This document shows, piece after piece, positions 6,435 through 64,000 of a stretch of 64,000 nucleotides of DNA (the first letter of the stretch is position 1; each line of letters begins with the position of its first letter). Origin of the DNA: a virus; the IMG/VR virus record IMGVR_UViG_3300039308_000034, positions 15,206-79,205 of that record; one strand, written 5' to 3'. The notes below the pieces were generated by a model. It ran no database searches. It was given only the letters and a program-made list of their open reading frames with translations, and was not told the DNA's origin. The position numbers were made by a program, and so were the translations under genes.

Positions 6435-7811
6435 ATGAAAACATTAGAATTTAAAATCTATCCCAACAAAACTCAGCAGCAAACGATCGATCGGTGGATT
6501 GAAACCCTCCGCTTAGTTTGGAACTGGGGGTTAGAACTCTTGATTGAACTTGATGCTTACAGTGCTCCCTACGTCGTCATGGTTAAACAAGAGGGAGAAC
6601 TCAAAAAAACTTATCATCGTGCTCCCTGTTGTCCAATCGGATGGGAATACCGCTGGATGAAAGGAAAACGATGGGAGTTTACCTCAGGAAAGCTAGACAT
6701 TATAGAAGGGGCTAGCGACACTGATTGGGCTGCCATTCCTTACTCGCGTCGTGCTTCAAGGCGACCTTACCGAATGTTCTGCCCACTCATTCCTACAGGG
6801 CTGGACGATCGCATTTGGGAAGAACCCTCACCCTTTGCCTATAAAGAACCGCGCCTCGACAACCCCTCCAACTTCTCACTCGCCAAGTTCTTCGCTCACA
6901 AACGCCATCCAGATTGGCAGGCACTCAATGAAATCCCTGCTTGGTTTATTCGAGGAACCTGCCACAGCCTTGCTAATGCTTGGGACCGATATAAGTCTAA
7001 GAAAGGAGGACTTCCCCGGTTTAAGCGCAAGGGGGATGCGGTTGACACTCTAATTCACGAAGACGCCTCAAAGCTGCGAATCCGACGGGTTGATGAAAAA
7101 GGTCGAGAGGTGGCATATCTCCAGATTCCCAAGCTGGGCGAATTCAAAGTGAAATATTTTGCACAGGACTGGAATCAAGATGTTCCGGTGAAAGTGTTAA
7201 AGCTGTGCCGCCAGCCTGACGCTTATTATCTCCAGATGACAGGCAATTTACCTGTCAAGCCACCCAAAGTCAGCACTAGAACGGCAGGATTGGCTTTGCC
7301 ACAGGCACAAGGCATTTTGTATGTAGACGATCGCGGCAAGATGGTGGAGGCAATCCCTGAAGATCTAAAGCTGCTATTGCGCCTGGAAAAATTACAGCAG
7401 CAACTGGCACGCCAGGAGTATTTGTCGAAGAATTGGCATAAGACAAAAAACAAGATTGCGCGGCTGTATCGTCGAGCGAAGCTTCGGGCTAGAAATCACA
7501 ATCATAAACTCAGTACGTTTGTCGTGCGGAAGTTTAATGAGATTGCAATTCAGGATGTAAAGGCAGGAGCCATCCCTAGCCCAGAACCAATTGTGGAGCA
7601 CGTTGAACCGCCTAAATATGCGCCAAATGGTGCAACGCAGGTTTCGCTAATTAACCAGCGTCGTACTGCTATGCGAACTGGACAATTTGTTGCCTTGATT
7701 CAGCAAAAAGCTAAATCAGCCGGTAAAACAGTTATTAAAATAAAACCTAAAAAGAATGCGAAGCAAACAAACCCCGCTAAGATAGCAGCTAGTATCAAAC
7801 CCAAAGACTGA
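6435..7811 (+). CDS. tnpB: Nuclease-dead TnpB (IS200/IS605 OrfB)-derived protein, TldR-like
   Basis: N-terminal KTLEFKIYPNKTQQQTIDRW...LVWN, LPRFKRKG and bridge-helix NWHKTKNKIARLYRR motifs. RuvC-I reads AGLALP (canonical GIDLG), RuvC-II IAIQD (canonical IEDL); no CxxC Zn finger or DxNAA motif. Confidence 0.85.
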   Translation: MKTLEFKIYPNKTQQQTIDRWIETLRLVWNWGLELLIELDAYSAPYVVMVKQEGELKKTYHRAPCCPIGWEYRWMKGKRWEFTSGKLDIIEGASDTDWAAIPYSRRASRRPYRMFCPLIPTGLDDRIWEEPSPFAYKEPRLDNPSNFSLAKFFAHKRHPDWQALNEIPAWFIRGTCHSLANAWDRYKSKKGGLPRFKRKGDAVDTLIHEDASKLRIRRVDEKGREVAYLQIPKLGEFKVKYFAQDWNQDVPVKVLKLCRQPDAYYLQMTGNLPVKPPKVSTRTAGLALPQAQGILYVDDRGKMVEAIPEDLKLLLRLEKLQQQLARQEYLSKNWHKTKNKIARLYRRAKLRARNHNHKLSTFVVRKFNEIAIQDVKAGAIPSPEPIVEHVEPPKYAPNGATQVSLINQRRTAMRTGQFVALIQQKAKSAGKTVIKIKPKKNAKQTNPAKIAASIKPKD

Positions 7812-8047
7812 TACTCGCTCAGGGGTGGGTCTGGGCGTAATGAATGGGTAAGTCGCTCGCGCACCATTGTACAACCGAGGTAGGTGCTACCTCCGATCGT
7901 CCTAAGGCAGCACGCTGACGGCAAATCTGGAAAATCTTGTTTACCTGTTAGTAAACGTTACTGCATCGATCACACACTTTTCCCAAAAGAAGATCGCACT
8001 TCCAATTGACCTGACCTTATTCCGATCGCACTGTAGCGAGGCATACG
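7812..8047 (+). ncRNA. Putative omegaRNA/guide RNA of the dead TnpB
   Basis: 236-bp gap directly 3' of tnpB; hairpins at 7813-7830, 7877-7893 (GAGGTAG-gtg-CTACCTC) and 7939-7956 (GTTTAC-N6-GTAAAC), then TCAC at 7970-7973. Position is as expected for omegaRNA; no expression data. Confidence 0.5.
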
Positions 8048-9136
8048 CTAGACTGTCTTCCGGCTTCCAGGTAATAAATGGCGATATCGTCGCGCAATCA
8101 TCATTGGGATCTTGGCTTCTCTGGCAACGGCTGCTAATGTCGCGCGTTTACGTTTCTGGGCAAGCCGTTGAATTGCTGCCCGGACGCGACTGGGAACATC
8201 CTCGCCAAATTGAATTTGATGTAGAGCTTTAGGATGATGCCACAGCTTTTGGCATTCAATTCCAGTTGTTTGAGCAATCGCACCTATATGAACCGTAGAC
8301 CGTTGAGTTTGCAATTGAACGATCGCTGTTTGAACCTGCTCCAACACAACCTGCATTTCGCTTTGGGTTGCCCGTTGCCATTCTGGAAGTTCAGTTGCGC
8401 TTCCAGGATCTTCAAACTGTTGGCGCAATAAAGATAGGGCTTGATCCAAATATTGCTCTACGTCCCAGGTTGACCGCTCCAAGAACCGGGCAATTTCATG
8501 GGGCGATCGATTATCGACATAAGCCCACTCCACAATCTGCTGAAGCTCCTGGGGCAGGAAGTCGAGGATCGAGCGTAACTTTGAGAATAGGGACAATCTT
8601 TCGGGTACCATAACGGCTTCAGTTCCCTCATTGTCTGGGCAGGGAATTGTATGAAGCAGCGTAAATCCTTCCTCTCCCTGTTGAACTGGCGCGTCCAAAC
8701 TTACTGCTGAACAATTTGCCTGCTGAAGCTCTAAAAACTTTTCAACAGAGATACCCATCATTAACCGAACTTCCTCGTGAGTGGGCTGCCGTCCTAAGAG
8801 GCTGAACAATTCTGCTTCAGCAGCATACATTCGTCGCCTCAATTGCTTAATTTCCGAGGGAAGCTTCACCGCTCCGTTTTGACCCAAAAACTCACGCATC
8901 TTACCTTTAATGCAAACCCTGGCGTAAGGCAAGAATGCATGAGTCGGAATTAAACCCAGCCGCTCGATCGCATAGATTAACCCGTCATAGCCCACCATTT
9001 CAAGATCTTCTACATCCATCCACCCGTTGCGGCAAAGGGAACGAGCAATCGACTTAACCAGGCCACGATGTTGCTCAATGATGCGGTTACGAAGAACGGT
9101 TGAAGGATCTTGGATATAAGCTTCCAATAATTCCAT
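8048..9136 (-). CDS. Phage-encoded group 3 (SigF/FliA-like) sigma-70 family factor with C-terminal extension
   Basis: Region 2 RNRIIEQHRGLVKSIAR...EDLEMVGYDGLIYAIER, region 3 LGRQPTHEE...VSLDAP, region 4 HTH. Start placed at 9136 (TAATG coupling with the dnaN stop). Confidence 0.88.
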   Translation of the reverse strand: MELLEAYIQDPSTVLRNRIIEQHRGLVKSIARSLCRNGWMDVEDLEMVGYDGLIYAIERLGLIPTHAFLPYARVCIKGKMREFLGQNGAVKLPSEIKQLRRRMYAAEAELFSLLGRQPTHEEVRLMMGISVEKFLELQQANCSAVSLDAPVQQGEEGFTLLHTIPCPDNEGTEAVMVPERLSLFSKLRSILDFLPQELQQIVEWAYVDNRSPHEIARFLERSTWDVEQYLDQALSLLRQQFEDPGSATELPEWQRATQSEMQVVLEQVQTAIVQLQTQRSTVHIGAIAQTTGIECQKLWHHPKALHQIQFGEDVPSRVRAAIQRLAQKRKRATLAAVAREAKIPMMIARRYRHLLPGSRKTV

Positions 9137-10290
9137 TAGACAGACCTGATCTGGATCGGCATGGTCAGTCCTACATAATCCTCCCCGCCAATGGGACGAA
9201 TTACCGCCGGACTTGTGGATGTATTGCACTGCAGCACAATCTCTTTTGTGCTGATCGCCTTCAGGGTTTCGAGCAGATATTTTACGTTAAACGCAATATC
9301 CAAGTCATCTCCTGTAATTGTCGCTGGAATCTCTTCCCTACCACTGCCCACATCTTGAGCTTCAACCGATAGCACAATCGTCTGAGAAGGAACATTAAGG
9401 CTGAATTTCACAATGCTGTTTTTTTGGTCTGCCAGCACAGCTACGCGTTCCATCGCCCCAATCAGTTGACGACGATCGATATAAGCCTCTCGTCCGAATT
9501 GACGCGGGATTAGCTGGTTATAGTTTGGATACTGCCCTTCAAGCAGACGCGTCGTCATGACCATGTTTTCTTCACGAAACTCAGCTAAGCCTTTACCCAG
9601 CTTAAAATCAAAGGTTTCTTTCGCTCCATTGCACAAAATTGCTTCCAGCAGTTTGACTGCCTTGCCTGGAATGGTTAACGACCCAACCTCTCGATCCGCT
9701 GGCTCCTCCTCAACAACTTTGAAGCAAGATAGGCGATGCCCGTCTGTCGAAGCCCATTCCAGACGATCGGCTTCGAGAGTGAAATGGATTCCGGTCAACA
9801 CTTGTTTTGTTTCGTCATCGCTACAGGAATAAAGTGTATGGCGCAATCCCGCCAACATCTCAACTTTGTTGAGGGTCATTGCTGCTTCTTGAGGCAACTC
9901 AAGCTCAGGGTATTCATCAGCTGGCATACCACGCACTTGATAGCGCCCAACTGTTGCAGTAATTGTTGCAACATCTGACTCATCAACCGAAATGGTAAGT
10001 ACTCCTTCCGGCAAACGGGAAACAATATCTCCCAAAAGTTTGGCAGGAAGAGTAATTGACCCAGAGGACTGAACAACTGCACCCATACTGACGCAAATTC
10101 CAATCGATAAATCAAATCCAGTCAAGGAAATCTGCTGCTTATCTTGATTGACCACTAAAAGCACGTTTGCTAATACTGGTTGAGAAGGGCGATTCGGAAT
10201 TGCACGAGATACCAATGTTAGTTTTTCATTGAGTTCTTTCTGCTGACAATTAAACAAAATTGCAGCATCAGTTTTGAGTAGTGTTGCCAT
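9136..10290 (-). CDS. dnaN: DNA polymerase III beta sliding clamp
   Basis: PVLANVLL, LTGFDLSIGI, ASTDGHRL, RLLEGQYPNYNQLIP, IAFNVKYLLE motifs; 384 aa. Confidence 0.95.
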   Translation of the reverse strand: MATLLKTDAAILFNCQQKELNEKLTLVSRAIPNRPSQPVLANVLLVVNQDKQQISLTGFDLSIGICVSMGAVVQSSGSITLPAKLLGDIVSRLPEGVLTISVDESDVATITATVGRYQVRGMPADEYPELELPQEAAMTLNKVEMLAGLRHTLYSCSDDETKQVLTGIHFTLEADRLEWASTDGHRLSCFKVVEEEPADREVGSLTIPGKAVKLLEAILCNGAKETFDFKLGKGLAEFREENMVMTTRLLEGQYPNYNQLIPRQFGREAYIDRRQLIGAMERVAVLADQKNSIVKFSLNVPSQTIVLSVEAQDVGSGREEIPATITGDDLDIAFNVKYLLETLKAISTKEIVLQCNTSTSPAVIRPIGGEDYVGLTMPIQIRSV

Positions 10291-13366: not shown

Positions 13367-13443
13367 AGTTCGGATGGTACTTAAAAAAGTGTTTAAGTCT
13401 TGGTGTGCAGAGGTTATACACTTTTTAATTTACTGTCCGAACC
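13367..13443. repeat. 28-bp bipartite sites #1 (13367-13394, +) and #2 (13416-13443, -), convergent, 21-bp spacer
   Basis: AGTTCGGATGG-TACTTA-AAAAAGTGTTT and, on the minus strand, GGTTCGGACAG-TAAATT-AAAAAGTGTAT. Confidence 0.9.
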
Positions 13444-39500: not shown

Positions 39501-39519
39501 TGTCGAGAAGATGCGATAA
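27547..39519 (+). CDS. Giant tail tape measure protein (3990 aa)
   Basis: TP901-type core (AKDLGASTRYSASEAASG..LAQAG), amphipathic W/F-periodic repeats, C-terminal FASGGLV..G.GGGTSDRIPAMLSNGEFV motif. Confidence 0.95.
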   Translation: MTEENKIERYGISAEYSFDASENTFATMKQVVAGLQTIEDAVKQTSSAIKQSGLAQNLRQMANQAGGAIGQATQQMQQMGQGSKQTGNQLQQLAQEFRALRAESKAIDLSEIADPQQFKKAETGLNEYIRQLEQLKKQIDTTTPQGRQMAAQIQREQMVASRQIGKINQQAQSSSQDAARQLGNLGKEFRALRAEAQNIDFGDLDDPNQFKQATQQIEKYITELKKLEAQVDKTSPEGRTLAAQMQRSQTIAGNRLDRANLERQSAKAQERQGMAAGVAGAGAAVMLPMIGLGKEAISTVSEFSDQMMEVKAVLDPKDWGMLDAIRQKAKDLGASTRYSASEAASGFVLLAQAGYDVDKQMKAIDGTLSLAAAGNLQLARATEITVSTLGQFQIDATKATHVANVLAKAAAMGQLDVNDMGESLKYAGGSAKRANVSFEQTSAMLALLSEGGLKGEMAGSNLASMMDSITAPSSTASKALRQLGIITKDARGNLLPFDRILGQLNNRLSKMGSGRRASFESAIFGTTGGRAASILLPRLSKLGSATSEIMNTADQGIGSAAEQAQIMESDIGGAFRSLQSAMQGAFIEIGERIAPAVKAATQAITGLLKTFIKLPEPIKTAIILTGAIVTGLATLAVVLGTVGIAFFGFQAAMAQAAIGMSAMAGAGVPLTGFFATVMQAFSTGGIITGFAGLGTSISTAAAALGAFITGPVGLLLVAGAAIVGLLEILTPGFNVLGTVVGVALSPIAFTFGLVRGALQGLWVALKPVVTEFSGMSGDGKYLSDVMQTIAKVLSNVAGVGKVAGKVLGFLVGAGIATPLKWLIKGFKFLIGMLRGVGMVAGTIAAPFVWAIQQIGRAWQGFVDWFQKMPLVKFALDIAQKLINALNHNPTERIPEAWDKAVQRIQGLFEWLGRAGQATAEVLSYLLDPSRIFKGILRGLITLVQNTISTIQDSGIGQVLDKIGFDAPIDGLQAGLEKLKAMTEDKPLQVEVIPKLDSTIQSVAETKPVSLAVQPVVDKPDLTSVQSIKPSAVPIQPTLSKTPALGMLPTPTAAPTLQTPNLSNFLSALTTQLETAKTIAAQTFGEIKQSWLDNWSFLQRSGTTDLSQLFAPGIDTLKAQLSTVRQDFQSFAQETIAAIGSMDWEKAKQSAQNFGTTLSGAAQSAGKAIGGLTLSTIALGVFSLTSLSPLVLILGGIGLTALAIATDFLGIRTAIMGVMKMIGGLINVVRGAIEVFVALLTTATNTVQGILKVLDGILPALRGDFSQMQAGWNQITQGFQAGAIEISQAFGRMGRGIGQVFEGAFQVVHGIGEGIFRAITGTAQAIKLIFQGIGATINGTAKLISLIGEGFRAIPSVVGEVGQKIQAKWQALNSWISNLNLVPDLSSFSKVGDRISGVLSSAKTLIQTGVEQIHSIWNGLKLNLPHLDLSPILGLPDRIQGIVQQAAGVVQSAIARIQQIWQTLTFHFPTLDLSHLTALPNRIQGVVQQATDVVQSAIARIQQIWQTLTFHLPTLDLSHLTALPDRIQGIITTIRSTFDAGTTQIRSTWDTISHLALPGLKTVIDTVKGLPPIFEGAIERIKSLWSGVGDKISSVLGFVRGKSKQVGEEITHNLSENSPGPTFQIRMKWAMTAESVQERMVSIAQQAKLSGQQIADRVVGGFEQIQVGAKAKLSGVKQQISSALNGKGVGAVGRSFSSVGMALSNISPQLAAPLFVMSDLIDTSQTLSETLPEAQKFFTGLLPKVKGLGGAVGGLVPKLAGMLSGLIPILTSLSTTAITALGAVVTPLLPIIGTIAAIGIGVILLRKAWQKNFLGIRSLVETIGSAIQSLFAGILKFADRFLNPLRLIQGLFSLIRQGLSGLGKLFIPLMGITTAIQGGWQGFKDWFNSLFNGLPIKAADASKKVQQALYTPTKKVPPPWEAAVQKVKEQIGSLTAMGQSIDLPQMTSPTIQPTIAPIPTITSPTIQPTIAPVSQITAPPILASTAPGLATIPPQIAQIKTGMEELGQTWQAETDQMQQQGIAAFTSVFSPLADRAKTAFGQLHQRVAEFVAQVQALMSNVTLDNLNEGIQGIGKQLKASVQQAGNSLNAATLSAIAFGVTSLLSLSPIILILGAIGLGALAIATNFLGVRTAILGVFKIVTGLFNTVRGGLETMTALITTVINAARSMAQILGGIPAAFRGDPSQMQAGFGSLVESFQTGASQIKQAFNRIGRGVGQIFEGAYQVVSGIVDGLIRLFQGLGQAIELVFKGASAIVTGLGRTFQLVGDGIQSLPGIVTTAGDKLKATWQNVTAAVHNLPFLPNLQDLQQLPDRVAGIFNIIKEQVQKGITQIQSAWQSWNLHLPEINLSSLQPVVERTKATAQQILGFFQNLTLRLPELNLSNLLNVPERISSTIAQIQATWTKLNLPFPEIKLSALQTIPDRVHSLISQVQNYWNSLALKFPLPDLSSLEGVSDRVRGVISATQEVIAAGIAQIRSIWQTLTTLDDVPILQGFVDFAKTLPDIFQAAIEQIKSLWGGLGDKVKNVFGFMRGKSKETGQEMISNLAENSPGPTFQIRQKWQMTAERIQAYLSGVAEHAQVTGQQIATQITAGTQQAATAAKTKLGAIGQSLNQALGGKGVYAMGRSFSSVGMVLSNFAPQAAAPLFMLSDLVDTSQTLSETLPETQKFFTGLLPKVKGLGGAVGGLLPKLGGLVSGIIPLFGSLGTAATTALAAIAGPLLPIIAGIAAVIAVGYLLYQAFKQNFLGIRSLVQGVGKALTGTFKLIGAVVQGIADLIGNTFGAAIQTVVRVASSIGSFLIAPFVAAKNQIQSAWQGFQQWFSGLMGGLPNLAAEAGKRIIGFLNHNPTIVIPDSWEGAVQRISGDLSTLPGVAQDVGQQMVGAIQPDTIPNQLSDSIGAFGETASTVAGQVSNGFKGMTLASVAFGVSSLTSLAPIALIMAGIALAALAVATNFLGIRTILGGLWRVIQGVVEIAVSGFKAVLQVLKGLFQILGSVPAALMGDFSGILAGWQVVAAGMKQAADSLMSGMQTIFGGGAQVIRGIFEGLGQIVKVDVFDKMLNAAREFVSQVQAWFEKLSSTMTTTLSKPAEMMSGLFRRKQKGVAPAASPILESQAIVPDIQAAPIINAVPLIPESRAVQQSPSVSIAQPQISSSASSSNLDSLTQQLSTAESGIETIQSRTQTALNATTSGISSLGVALSNFAPQLAAPLFILTDMIDGFLGVTQAIPVFKAAIVGSAAVTATTNVEMTASNLALAGSNEMVAATSLRTRLAMMLTAVQQKAIAASNWVVSASNWVAVQSQQALSSATVQSGLAMLWNQIQQKAATTYNGMVAASNWLVATSQQAITWATSETGLAMIGATLQKQVSTAWNWLLAASNQAVAGTTTEAGLTMLWYSIQSKAAVVWNGILMGWNWLLSLSFEGIAVAATAAWSAVLAPIMPVVLAIGAVVGAVVLLWQAFKNNWGGMGDAMSGVMQGIQDFFAQIWNGIKAVVALGVQFAQFSFSISPIVIAFKMLWGVIQGVLVGVVAAWNSSFAIIAENISTTFGTIKQVIVSAFQPFSEMFAQLSSSLNQSQRQVGGLGTAISALVNILLIPTKLITAVLGVLLRAIGLIMQALVVVGGVIFKALLVPFRIVAGVVMGIIQIGLGVKDVFMDVLGSVWGALQSIAQAFQPMFDAITQIGTTLRDALSPLLGKAAGGDSFGAGIKAVIKAVLIPIRVIAGIIQVIFKAISLIIKLVAAVLSPVIRGLAVPIQIVATTLKIVVAVISTIFNVIGSIVSFIGSALQSIYNLIPAPIRWFLETIGKGIGSVVSFLFGSGQQEQAQPTQKPQKFASGGLVTNPGLVSGAGGGTSDRIPAMLSNGEFVMRAAATRMFMPWLNAMNQGQNPIASLMGGMQQQQSSFVQALLSGTPAKSALQLLPIAPPAIPQTPIAPAQQAKLPEGVSVTVQLTIQNITVVSDSDTSSAARRLAEEVQPEFERMVRDALRDIVEKMR
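31849..32112 (+). repeat. Recent 132-bp (44-codon) tandem duplication inside the tape measure gene
   Basis: Near-identical units start at 31849 and 31981, partial third at 32113 (LPDRIQG...LDLSHLTA). Confidence 0.85.
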
Positions 39520-39544
39520 CACTTTTTGCAGCACCGTCCGAACT
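39517..39544 (-). repeat. 28-bp bipartite site #3
   Basis: AGTTCGGACGG-TGCTGC-AAAAAGTGTTA; contains the tape measure stop and lies 2 bp from the terS stop. Confidence 0.85.
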
Positions 39545-40440: not shown

Positions 40441-40517
40441 GGTTCGGATGACATTTCAAAAAGTGTTTATGTGGATCTATCTGAACAAGAAACACTTTTT
40501 GATTTACCATCCAAACC
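40441..40517. repeat. 28-bp bipartite sites #4 (40441-40468, +) and #5 (40490-40517, -), convergent, 21-bp spacer
   Basis: GGTTCGGATGA-CATTTC-AAAAAGTGTTT and, on the minus strand, GGTTTGGATGG-TAAATC-AAAAAGTGTTT. Confidence 0.9.
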
Positions 40518-42368: not shown

Positions 42369-42416
42369 AAAACTTTACAGCAGATTAAAGAATTCTTTAA
42401 TCTGCTGTAAAGTTTT
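42369..42416. repeat. Perfect 48-bp palindrome (candidate telomere resolution site)
   Basis: AAAACTTTACAGCAGATTAAAGAA|TTCTTTAATCTGCTGTAAAGTTTT, no loop and no mismatch. The palindrome is certain; the function is inferred. Confidence 0.85.
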
Positions 42417-43837: not shown

Positions 43838-44136
43838 TTTAGCTGCTCAGGGTTCCTTAATAAGGAATCTTCGCACTCCTGTTGCTGAATTTCATACAGT
43901 TCATCTACGGTATAGCGATCGATCCGATCGGGTCTGTAGATTAGCTGGGAAAATTGCCCGAGCCATAGCATGTTGATCATCTCTCCACGCAAAACTGATT
44001 GGAGAATTTCAATTGGAATCCCATTGACCATCCCCAGTTCTAACGCCATATCGCAAAATCTTTGCTGATCATCCTGACTAGTGGAATCCAGCCCACGCGC
44101 CTTCATCTCTTGAACGACCAGACAGCGTAAAGACAT
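43834..44136 (-). CDS. Stand-alone copy of the ~80-aa domain repeated in the upstream repressor-like protein
   Basis: EMKARGLDST...GIPIEILQSVLRGE...LWLGQFSQL matches EFKKRGLDPT...AVPVKDLEAALAGK...LWLGQLSQI. Confidence 0.7.
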   Translation of the reverse strand: MSLRCLVVQEMKARGLDSTSQDDQQRFCDMALELGMVNGIPIEILQSVLRGEMINMLWLGQFSQLIYRPDRIDRYTVDELYEIQQQECEDSLLRNPEQLN

Positions 44137-45417: not shown

Positions 45418-45444
45418 AGTAACATTTTACAGGCTAATGTTACT
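45418..45444. promoter_or_regulatory. Candidate operator in the repressor/cro-like intergenic region
   Basis: Perfect 9-bp arms AGTAACATT-N9-AATGTTACT. Confidence 0.6.
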
Positions 45445-45473
45445 ATTTTAAGGAAAAGAAGAAGCATAAACTT

Positions 45474-49117: not shown

Positions 49118-49190
49118 TTGCGTTTTATTGCAAAGAAGCAATTAAAGCAGTCAAAAAGGTTAAAAGTTTTATGTTAGCCTGTAAAATTTA

Positions 49191-49654: not shown

Positions 49655-49682
49655 GGTTCGGACGGTAAAACAAAAAGCGTTT
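49655..49682 (+). repeat. 28-bp bipartite site #6
   Basis: GGTTCGGACGG-TAAAAC-AAAAAGCGTTT, 1 bp after the stop at 49653. Confidence 0.85.
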
Positions 49683-50943: not shown

Positions 50944-50971
50944 GGTTCGGATGGTGTAACCAAAAGTGTTT
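50944..50971 (+). repeat. 28-bp bipartite site #7
   Basis: GGTTCGGATGG-TGTAAC-CAAAAGTGTTT. Confidence 0.9.
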
Positions 50972-51490: not shown

Positions 51491-51518
51491 AAACACTTTT
51501 GGTTACACCGTCCGAACC
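51491..51518 (-). repeat. 28-bp bipartite site #8
   Basis: GGTTCGGACGG-TGTAAC-CAAAAGTGTTT; 27/28 identical to #7; 7 bp after the adaptor stop. Confidence 0.9.
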
Positions 51519-63053: not shown

Positions 63054-64000
63054 ATTGGGGAATTCCAATTGATGGCAACCCAACAGCAATTGTTTTAACG
63101 ACTGCTACATCCTCTACCTGCTCGCCATCCCATAAATCCTTAATTGTTAGCCGGAAGCGGACGCTGAACAGCGTGCCAGTTTTTTGTAGTTGGTCTCCGA
63201 TCTGCAGGCCCGATCGCCCCACCAAAAATACAGAGAGTCCATAGGCGGGAGCATCCATTTTGCCTTTTCCAATCTGGTTTACCAATGCCTTGTGGATTGC
63301 CTTGACATCCCCTAGTGTCGCACCAATGATTTCAACCTCAACAGGCTGATCATAAACCTGGGTCAACTCCAACAATCGCGCCTGATCTCCAGCAATTCGG
63401 ACGAAATCCTGAGCGATTGGTTTACGATAATTTTCACCTTCAAGCAGTCGTAGCAAAACACAGGGAATTTCTTCAACTTGATAAACCCCAACTTCGTGAT
63501 CTACTTTGGGTTTGTAACTCAAATGCATTTCTACTGCCCGATCGCCCGGAACCAATTCGCTTAATAAAATCCGATCTGATCCGAGCGTACCACTTACCAT
63601 CTTGAGTTCAGGCACAAGCACTCGAATATCGCTAATGCGATCCTGCTTAAGGTCTTTAGGCAACGGGAGCGCATTACCCTCCGGGTTCGGCATTGCAGCA
63701 CGAGTTAGCGTGACAGGCACAGTTAGAAACTGCCTTAAAGCAAACTCCATCAGGTAGTCGAGAAATTCACGACCGACCTCATAGCCTGCAACCACCTGGC
63801 GTATCTGGGGCGATCGACCATCTTCAAACCGATCAAGCCGAAGCAGAAACTGGATTGGTCCTGCCCACAGAGGTAATACCTGTCGCAACTGGGCCCCCGT
63901 GTAAAACAAGGGAGCTGCTGTGTCCTGCCATCGTCCATCAAGAAATACTTGAGCCACACCCGATGCCCTGAGAGGAGCGATCGTCACCCCCAATTCGCGG
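63052..64000 (-). CDS. Probable neck / tail-completion-like protein (5' end probably outside window)
   Basis: Frame is open to the window end; IPCVLLRLLEGEN...YDQPVEVEI...FSVRFRLTI pattern. Confidence 0.55.
   Translation of the reverse strand, partial: RELGVTIAPLRASGVAQVFLDGRWQDTAAPLFYTGAQLRQVLPLWAGPIQFLLRLDRFEDGRSPQIRQVVAGYEVGREFLDYLMEFALRQFLTVPVTLTRAAMPNPEGNALPLPKDLKQDRISDIRVLVPELKMVSGTLGSDRILLSELVPGDRAVEMHLSYKPKVDHEVGVYQVEEIPCVLLRLLEGENYRKPIAQDFVRIAGDQARLLELTQVYDQPVEVEIIGATLGDVKAIHKALVNQIGKGKMDAPAYGLSVFLVGRSGLQIGDQLQKTGTLFSVRFRLTIKDLWDGEQVEDVAVVKTIAVGLPSIGIPQ

Follow-up and report, generated by a model that had tools for sequence, protein, structure and literature searches.

The locus described here, in a 64,000-nucleotide stretch of viral DNA (the window), is best explained as a phage-borne, nuclease-dead DNA binder that derives from type V-U2, uses several guides, and is aimed mostly elsewhere than at the eight dispersed bipartite sites of the phage, which would be read by a protein; we give this reading a probability of about 65%. 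The features on which it rests are listed in Table 1.

Table 1. Positions of the features in the window
Feature	Position	Strand	Basis or remark
RuvC-dead C2c8 (type V-U2)-derived Cas12/TnpB-fold effector, 458 aa	6435..7811	+	NCBIfam, catalytic columns, tree, structure model
tracrRNA-like scaffold, joined directly to repeat 1	7812..7966	+	7 aligned copies, covariation
Invariant GTG, loop of scaffold hairpin 1	7825..7827	+	Invariant alignment columns
Anti-repeat CGATCG	7894..7899	+	Pairs with all three repeats; covaries with repeat across relatives
Hairpin of the preliminary description, part of variable 3' stem of scaffold	7939..7956	+	z -0.25; not conserved in relatives
Truncated repeat 1, CGATCACAC, one G-to-A change, includes TCAC 7970-7973	7967..7975	+	
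Guide 1 (putative), about 14 nt; first 6 nt match right arm of sites	7976..7989	+	
Truncated repeat 2	7992..7999	+	
Guide 2 (putative), about 22 nt	8000..8022	+	
Truncated repeat 3	8023..8031	+	
Possible guide 3, up to sigma stop codon	8032..8047	+	
SigF/FliA-like sigma factor with orphan C-terminal extension, convergent neighbor	8048..9136	-	
Dispersed bipartite site 1	13367..13394	+	
Dispersed bipartite site 2	13416..13443	-	
Dispersed bipartite site 3	39517..39544	-	
Dispersed bipartite site 4	40441..40468	+	
Dispersed bipartite site 5	40490..40517	-	
Dispersed bipartite site 6, ACGCTTTT variant, mismatch at guide position 1	49655..49682	+	
Dispersed bipartite site 7	50944..50971	+	
Dispersed bipartite site 8	51491..51518	-	

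The effector gene has an intact open reading frame, and the best NCBIfam family for its product is C2c8 (262 bits, below the family cut-off of 350), compared with 85 bits against the profile of IS200/IS605 TnpB (cut-off, 425). The protein is thus derived from C2c8/V-U2 and is not the IS200/IS605 TnpB for which a preliminary description of this DNA had taken it. The same description had called the protein nuclease dead, and the alignment of catalytic columns bears this out: the RuvC-I aspartate is replaced by alanine and the RuvC-II glutamate by glutamine, and RuvC-III is absent. The zinc finger is absent as well, and the protein has no CxxC pairs. In a tree of 95 homologs, the effector falls within a clade of 34 proteins (support, 0.976) that are dead without exception (34/34) and that are nested among active C2c8 proteins, and its predicted structure matches the TnpB and Cas12p folds. 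The relatives sit on cyanobacterial phage-like contigs, and the genes of the clade are annotated as transposases. No tnpA was found near the effector gene, which is followed by repeat-spacer units instead of a single-guide transposon right end; nor was tnsB, tnsC, or tniQ found among the called genes flanking the window gene or its relatives.

Two related loci have unusual surroundings. The closest protein relative (P0002; L008:6946-11878) closes an operon with weak hits to Csf3 and Csf1, which suggests a type IV-like module beside a dead V-U2 effector. In Gloeobacter morelensis plasmid pGMOR1 (NZ_CP063846.1; L056:3932-6220), the RuvC site of a C2c8-like gene, annotated only as a transposase, is partly or fully dead; a canonical array of about eight repeats follows the gene directly.

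The stretch that begins immediately 3' of the effector gene resembles a tracrRNA. In an alignment of seven copies from six phage loci, roughly the first 90 bases are conserved across the six loci, and 15 of the 24 predicted pairs show two-sided changes. A covariance model of this scaffold recovers the held-out copy of locus L004, upstream of a canonical array, with an E value of 2.5e-8. The anti-repeat changes together with the repeat: where the repeat has gained an A the anti-repeat has gained a T, and in L010 the two partners are wholly different and still form a pair. The gap behind the effector gene is the predicted source of the effector's RNA, as the preliminary description had proposed, in the form of a covarying tracrRNA-like scaffold followed by repeats. 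Nearly all repeats terminate in CAC, and the invariant GTG in the loop of hairpin 1 could, by analogy with the R:AR-1 pseudoknot of Cas12p, be the pseudoknot partner of this CAC. Rfam has no match in the window or the related loci, and an exact scan of IMG/VR returned no copy of the scaffold. The organization of the scaffold varies: locus L002 has a second copy with a second array (L002:12023-13000), in which the repeat is one base longer and the anti-repeat carries the compensating base, and in L010 the scaffold and a truncated array (9160-9915) are found upstream of the gene, on the strand opposite to it.

In the window, the scaffold runs into three truncated repeats on the same strand, each about 9 nt long and of the form (C)GATCGCAC. 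A cluster of three such words in this gap has a Poisson probability of about 1e-6; this value is optimistic, since HIP1-like words form clusters in the intergenic regions of cyanobacteria. The anti-repeat pairs with all three of them. In repeats 2 and 3, as in L002, L004, L009, and L046, the anti-repeat:repeat duplex stops 3 nt short of the 3' end of the repeat and leaves CAC; L010 is compatible with this geometry, and for L047 the comparison script gave no register. Repeat 1 ends within a CACACAC run that allows three registers, of which only the one ending at 7975 keeps the geometry of the family. This register has a single mismatch, at a position that is also variable in L002 and L009, and it agrees with the computed fold, in which 7895-7899 pair with 7967-7971. 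With this geometry, the start of guide 1 is placed, from sequence comparison, at 7976.

This placement revises the earlier account of the same stretch. According to that account, an IS200/IS605-type omegaRNA ends at a TCAC that follows a subterminal hairpin, and the guide, which begins right after it, matches the dispersed sites over 8 nt. The letters are as it gave them: between the effector stop at 7811 and the sigma stop at 8048, the only TCAC or TCAA is the TCAC within repeat 1, it lies 13 nt behind the hairpin, and ACACTTTT follows it directly, at 7974-7981. The hairpin, however, is no transposon end; it belongs to the variable 3' stem of the scaffold, it is unremarkable in itself, and it is not conserved in the relatives. 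Because the protein derives from C2c8/V-U2, the rule that a right end finishes with TCAA does not apply. The guide does begin within 2 nt of the proposed position, but at 7976 and not at 7974, which assigns two of the eight matching bases to the repeat and reduces the match between guide and sites to the 6-mer ACTTTT. As written, the earlier model is very improbable. The CACACAC run does allow a CAC ending at 7973, and the 8-mer is not expected in the gap by chance: the probability of finding ACACTTTT in a 236-nt gap is 1.1% by genome windows and 0.8% by shuffles, and the window holds nine copies against 3.0 expected, a number reached in none of 100 shuffles. A repeat ending at 7973 would nevertheless need a 2-nt bulge to bring the anti-repeat duplex beside the terminal CAC, for which repeats 2 and 3 and four relatives provide no precedent; the computed pairing, the C2c8-like score of the effector, and the lack of a nearby tnpA likewise speak against the model.

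The arrays of the relatives are either full or truncated and hold 5 to 23 guides. Beside the same scaffold, L004 has a canonical array with 36-nt repeats that end in GATCGCAC. In L002, L009, L046, L047, and L010, the repeats are truncated, most of them to about 6 to 12 nt, with short spacers and up to 23 units. These arrays bear on a further explanation, in which the array of the window has decayed, or HIP1-like words have clustered there by chance, and the dead effector is left with no usable guides. The window has only three imperfect repeats, the mismatch of repeat 1 affects the pairing core, the core of the repeats resembles HIP1, intergenic HIP1 clusters are present in host genomes, and no targets were found for the guides of the window. 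Against this stand the intact reading frame, the compensatory pairs that the scaffold retains, the placement of all three repeats on one strand with each of them pairing with the anti-repeat, and the same truncated design in L010, L047, and L005, whose repeats are not HIP1 words. We consider decay or chance improbable.

One protospacer in a neighboring phage provides the only clue to the PAM of the family, and it comes from a relative that is 49% identical: a spacer of L009 matches a gene of the related phage L002 at 29 of 36 nt; the match is perfect over the 13 nt of the 5' seed, and the flank is TTG. An exact scan of IMG/VR for this protospacer returned none. L002 and L009 also share spacer sequences of 30 and 16 nt (L002:11662/L009:12089 and L002:11893/L009:11897), and the 30-nt spacer has no target in 90 genomes. 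The first array unit of L009 (11629-11668) shares 98% identity with the end of a host MITE of roughly 124 bp, which has 14-bp terminal inverted repeats and was found in four or more genomes from the host order. Searches with the arrays in plasmids and 90 to 401 genomes gave only HIP1-driven or MITE matches. A match of an L009 junction to a host membrane-protein gene was rejected as HIP1 driven, the idea that the guides target host CRISPR leaders found no support, and no self-targeting was found in Gloeobacter pGMOR1 or G488.

As for the window itself, guide 2 matched the 90 genomes at chance level or not at all and has no convincing target. It has two 10-nt 5' matches in the phage's own genes (44009-44018 and 63063-63072), both preceded by GGA or GAA, which are probably chance products of a GGAATTCC-like palindrome. 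Guide 1 is two edits from an L009 spacer over 14 nt, a resemblance expected 0.008 times among 83 spacers and about 0.025 times over three guides, pointing to a target that includes bases absent from the dispersed sites. As a coincidence, it is comparable in size to the seed match at those sites.

All eight bipartite sites were recovered, with ACACTTTT in seven of them; among the dispersed gapped motifs of the 80.7-kb provirus, theirs is dominant. It has been suggested from this stretch that the effector is guided to these sites. In the form compatible with the revised guide start, guide 1 would bind the right arm of the sites by a 6-nt seed and an (A/T)AC PAM, and a second protein, the sigma factor or another, would read the other arm and supply the missing specificity. 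Such targeting is doubtful, although several observations fit it. The matching bases are precisely those of the 5' seed of the guide fused to the scaffold, and the probability that a guide starts with one of the ten site-conserved hexamers is 0.2% per guide and 0.7% over the three guides; no such hexamer starts any of the 83 spacers of the relatives. AAC or TAC lies 5' of the seed in 8/8 sites. There is a precedent in TldR, which recognizes a TAM and a 6-nt seed (10.1101/2023.11.30.569447), and in L002, 5 nt are common to the first guide and an operator of that phage.

Other observations speak against it. The single PAM clue is TTG, which conflicts with (A/T)AC, and across eight systems, self seed matches show no clear enrichment of any flank (AC rises to 10% versus 5% only with 8-nt seeds, in 13 cases). 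The seven bases 3' of the seed vary freely, with no drift toward the guide; at guide positions 7 to 14, the seven sites scored match at 1 to 3 of 8 positions, the random level. Site 6 differs from the guide at guide position 1, the phage genome contains 66 copies of ACTTTT, and only two of the eight sites, at the NrdR block and terS, face a gene start in the direction of the guide. The relatives do not support the link either. The closest phage (111 kb) has many genes and the dead effector in common with the window and has neither the sites nor the sigma factor; its array is cut off by the contig end, and both contigs of its MAG end at the same 141 bases. The operator of L002 is intergenic and consists of six inverted pairs (12 copies) of a 12-bp word with 21- to 23-nt spacers, between positions 2382 and 20770 of a contig assembled from L126 and L127. 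Its layout resembles the two inverted pairs of the window, its sequence is unrelated, and none of the 23 guides of L002 has a 6-nt seed match in it. The site motif has two unrelated single matches in IMG/VR, and in 90 genomes of the host order it has 5 matches, versus 11 for a reversed control. The 6-nt match between guide 1 and the sites is thus most likely due to chance, the 0.7% coincidence notwithstanding, and the eight sites are best read as operators of a phage protein.

Other palindromic elements are present in the window. A perfect 48-bp palindrome without a loop lies at 42369-42416, and a 28-nt inverted pair (45424-45451 and 49160-49187; 79% complementary) flanks the replication block and may be a second operator family.

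The convergent sigma factor is not kept beside the relatives of the effector: no homolog was found in the replicons of 111, 70, and 172 kb, in 38 kb of L002, or in eight shorter loci, all of which carry relatives of the dead Cas12. No homolog of its C-terminal extension was found. Co-folding of the effector with the C-terminal half of the sigma factor scored 0.00, which has no weight either way.

Under the preferred reading of a multi-guide binder, a single transcript 3' of the effector gene would contain the tracrRNA-like scaffold and then the three repeat-spacer units, the repeats having been cut back to their scaffold-pairing portion. Together with the scaffold, the dead effector would take up short processed guides and bind matching DNA without cutting it, acting as a roadblock or a repressor. 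By analogy with Cas12m and TldR, we infer that its targets are most likely competing phages or host loci.

Several known systems share traits with this one. V-U2 (C2c8) has been reported in cyanophage vB_AphaS-CL131 (gp061) and was called minimal and possibly regulatory (PMC6293099). It is the best HMM family for the effector, and the two have in common a cyanophage location, the order of effector and array, and the lack of visible adjacent adaptation genes. The window effector, in contrast, has lost all three RuvC residues and the zinc finger and scores below the family cut-off, and its locus has repeats of about 9 nt, spacers of 14 to 22 nt, and a scaffold fused to repeat 1. Cas12k, also a dead cyanobacterial Cas12, has guides made of the tracr-pairing part of the repeat and a short spacer (10.1101/2021.02.06.429022). 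It belongs to a different lineage, however, tnsBC and tniQ are lacking among the called genes flanking the window effector, and only single homing guides are truncated in Cas12k, whereas whole arrays are truncated in the clade of the window. Cas12m is a noncutting Cas12 for which a role as a roadblock to mobile elements has been proposed (PMC11013384), but it belongs to V-U1 and has ordinary arrays, unlike the tracr-like scaffold found here in phages.

TldR is likewise a dead protein of the TnpB fold, occurs in prophages, uses a 6-nt seed, and represses by binding (10.1101/2023.11.30.569447), and conserved RuvC inactivation, a TldR-like trait, is found in the 34 dead proteins of our single clade. 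TldR, however, is a direct descendant of transposon TnpB and uses one omegaRNA guide whose target match is longer, whereas the system of the window is CRISPR derived and multi-guide. The dCas12f systems combine a dead Cas12, a C-terminal truncation, a sigma gene next door, and a minimized array with a half-repeat fused to the tracrRNA (PMC13472631; PMC10691335). In contrast to dCas12f-sigmaE, the sigma factor of the window belongs to group 3, is encoded convergently, and has no counterpart in the relatives searched; the dispersed sites have a second conserved arm, and most of them do not point toward a gene start. Cas12p (Cas12 hacker) is among the best fold matches (TM, 0.56) and is also phage borne, and its tracrRNA forms a pseudoknot with the end of the repeat, of which 10 nt are present in the complex (PDB 9jfs; 10.1101/2025.01.20.633832). 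Nevertheless, Cas12p is an active nuclease with a GTN PAM and is 16% identical to the effector.

Cyanophage V-U2, truncated repeat-spacer units of Cas12k, and array minimization in dead Cas12f are already known. The literature covered, which was incomplete, contained no dead V-U2 clade whose multi-guide arrays are truncated throughout; this clade may correspond to one of the inactive V-U groups numbered in PMC10691335. Dead V-U2 with shrunken arrays, common to related viruses, is apparently undescribed, and repeats of about 9 nt are probably too short for standard array finders.

Should the dead V-U2 effector, against our expectation, mark the eight composite sites of its own genome by a 6-nt seed, with the second arm read by a phage protein, this link would amount to a new phage regulatory logic, in which RNA and protein together form a hybrid operator network that controls a temperate cyanophage. 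For the clade as a whole, the comparison describes a cyanophage lineage that has lost cutting, kept its scaffold, and compressed its arrays to repeats of about 9 nt and up to 23 short guides. The clade would thus offer a compact multiplex DNA binder of 410 to 460 aa, and it gives a series of intermediates from a canonical array to a fused single guide.
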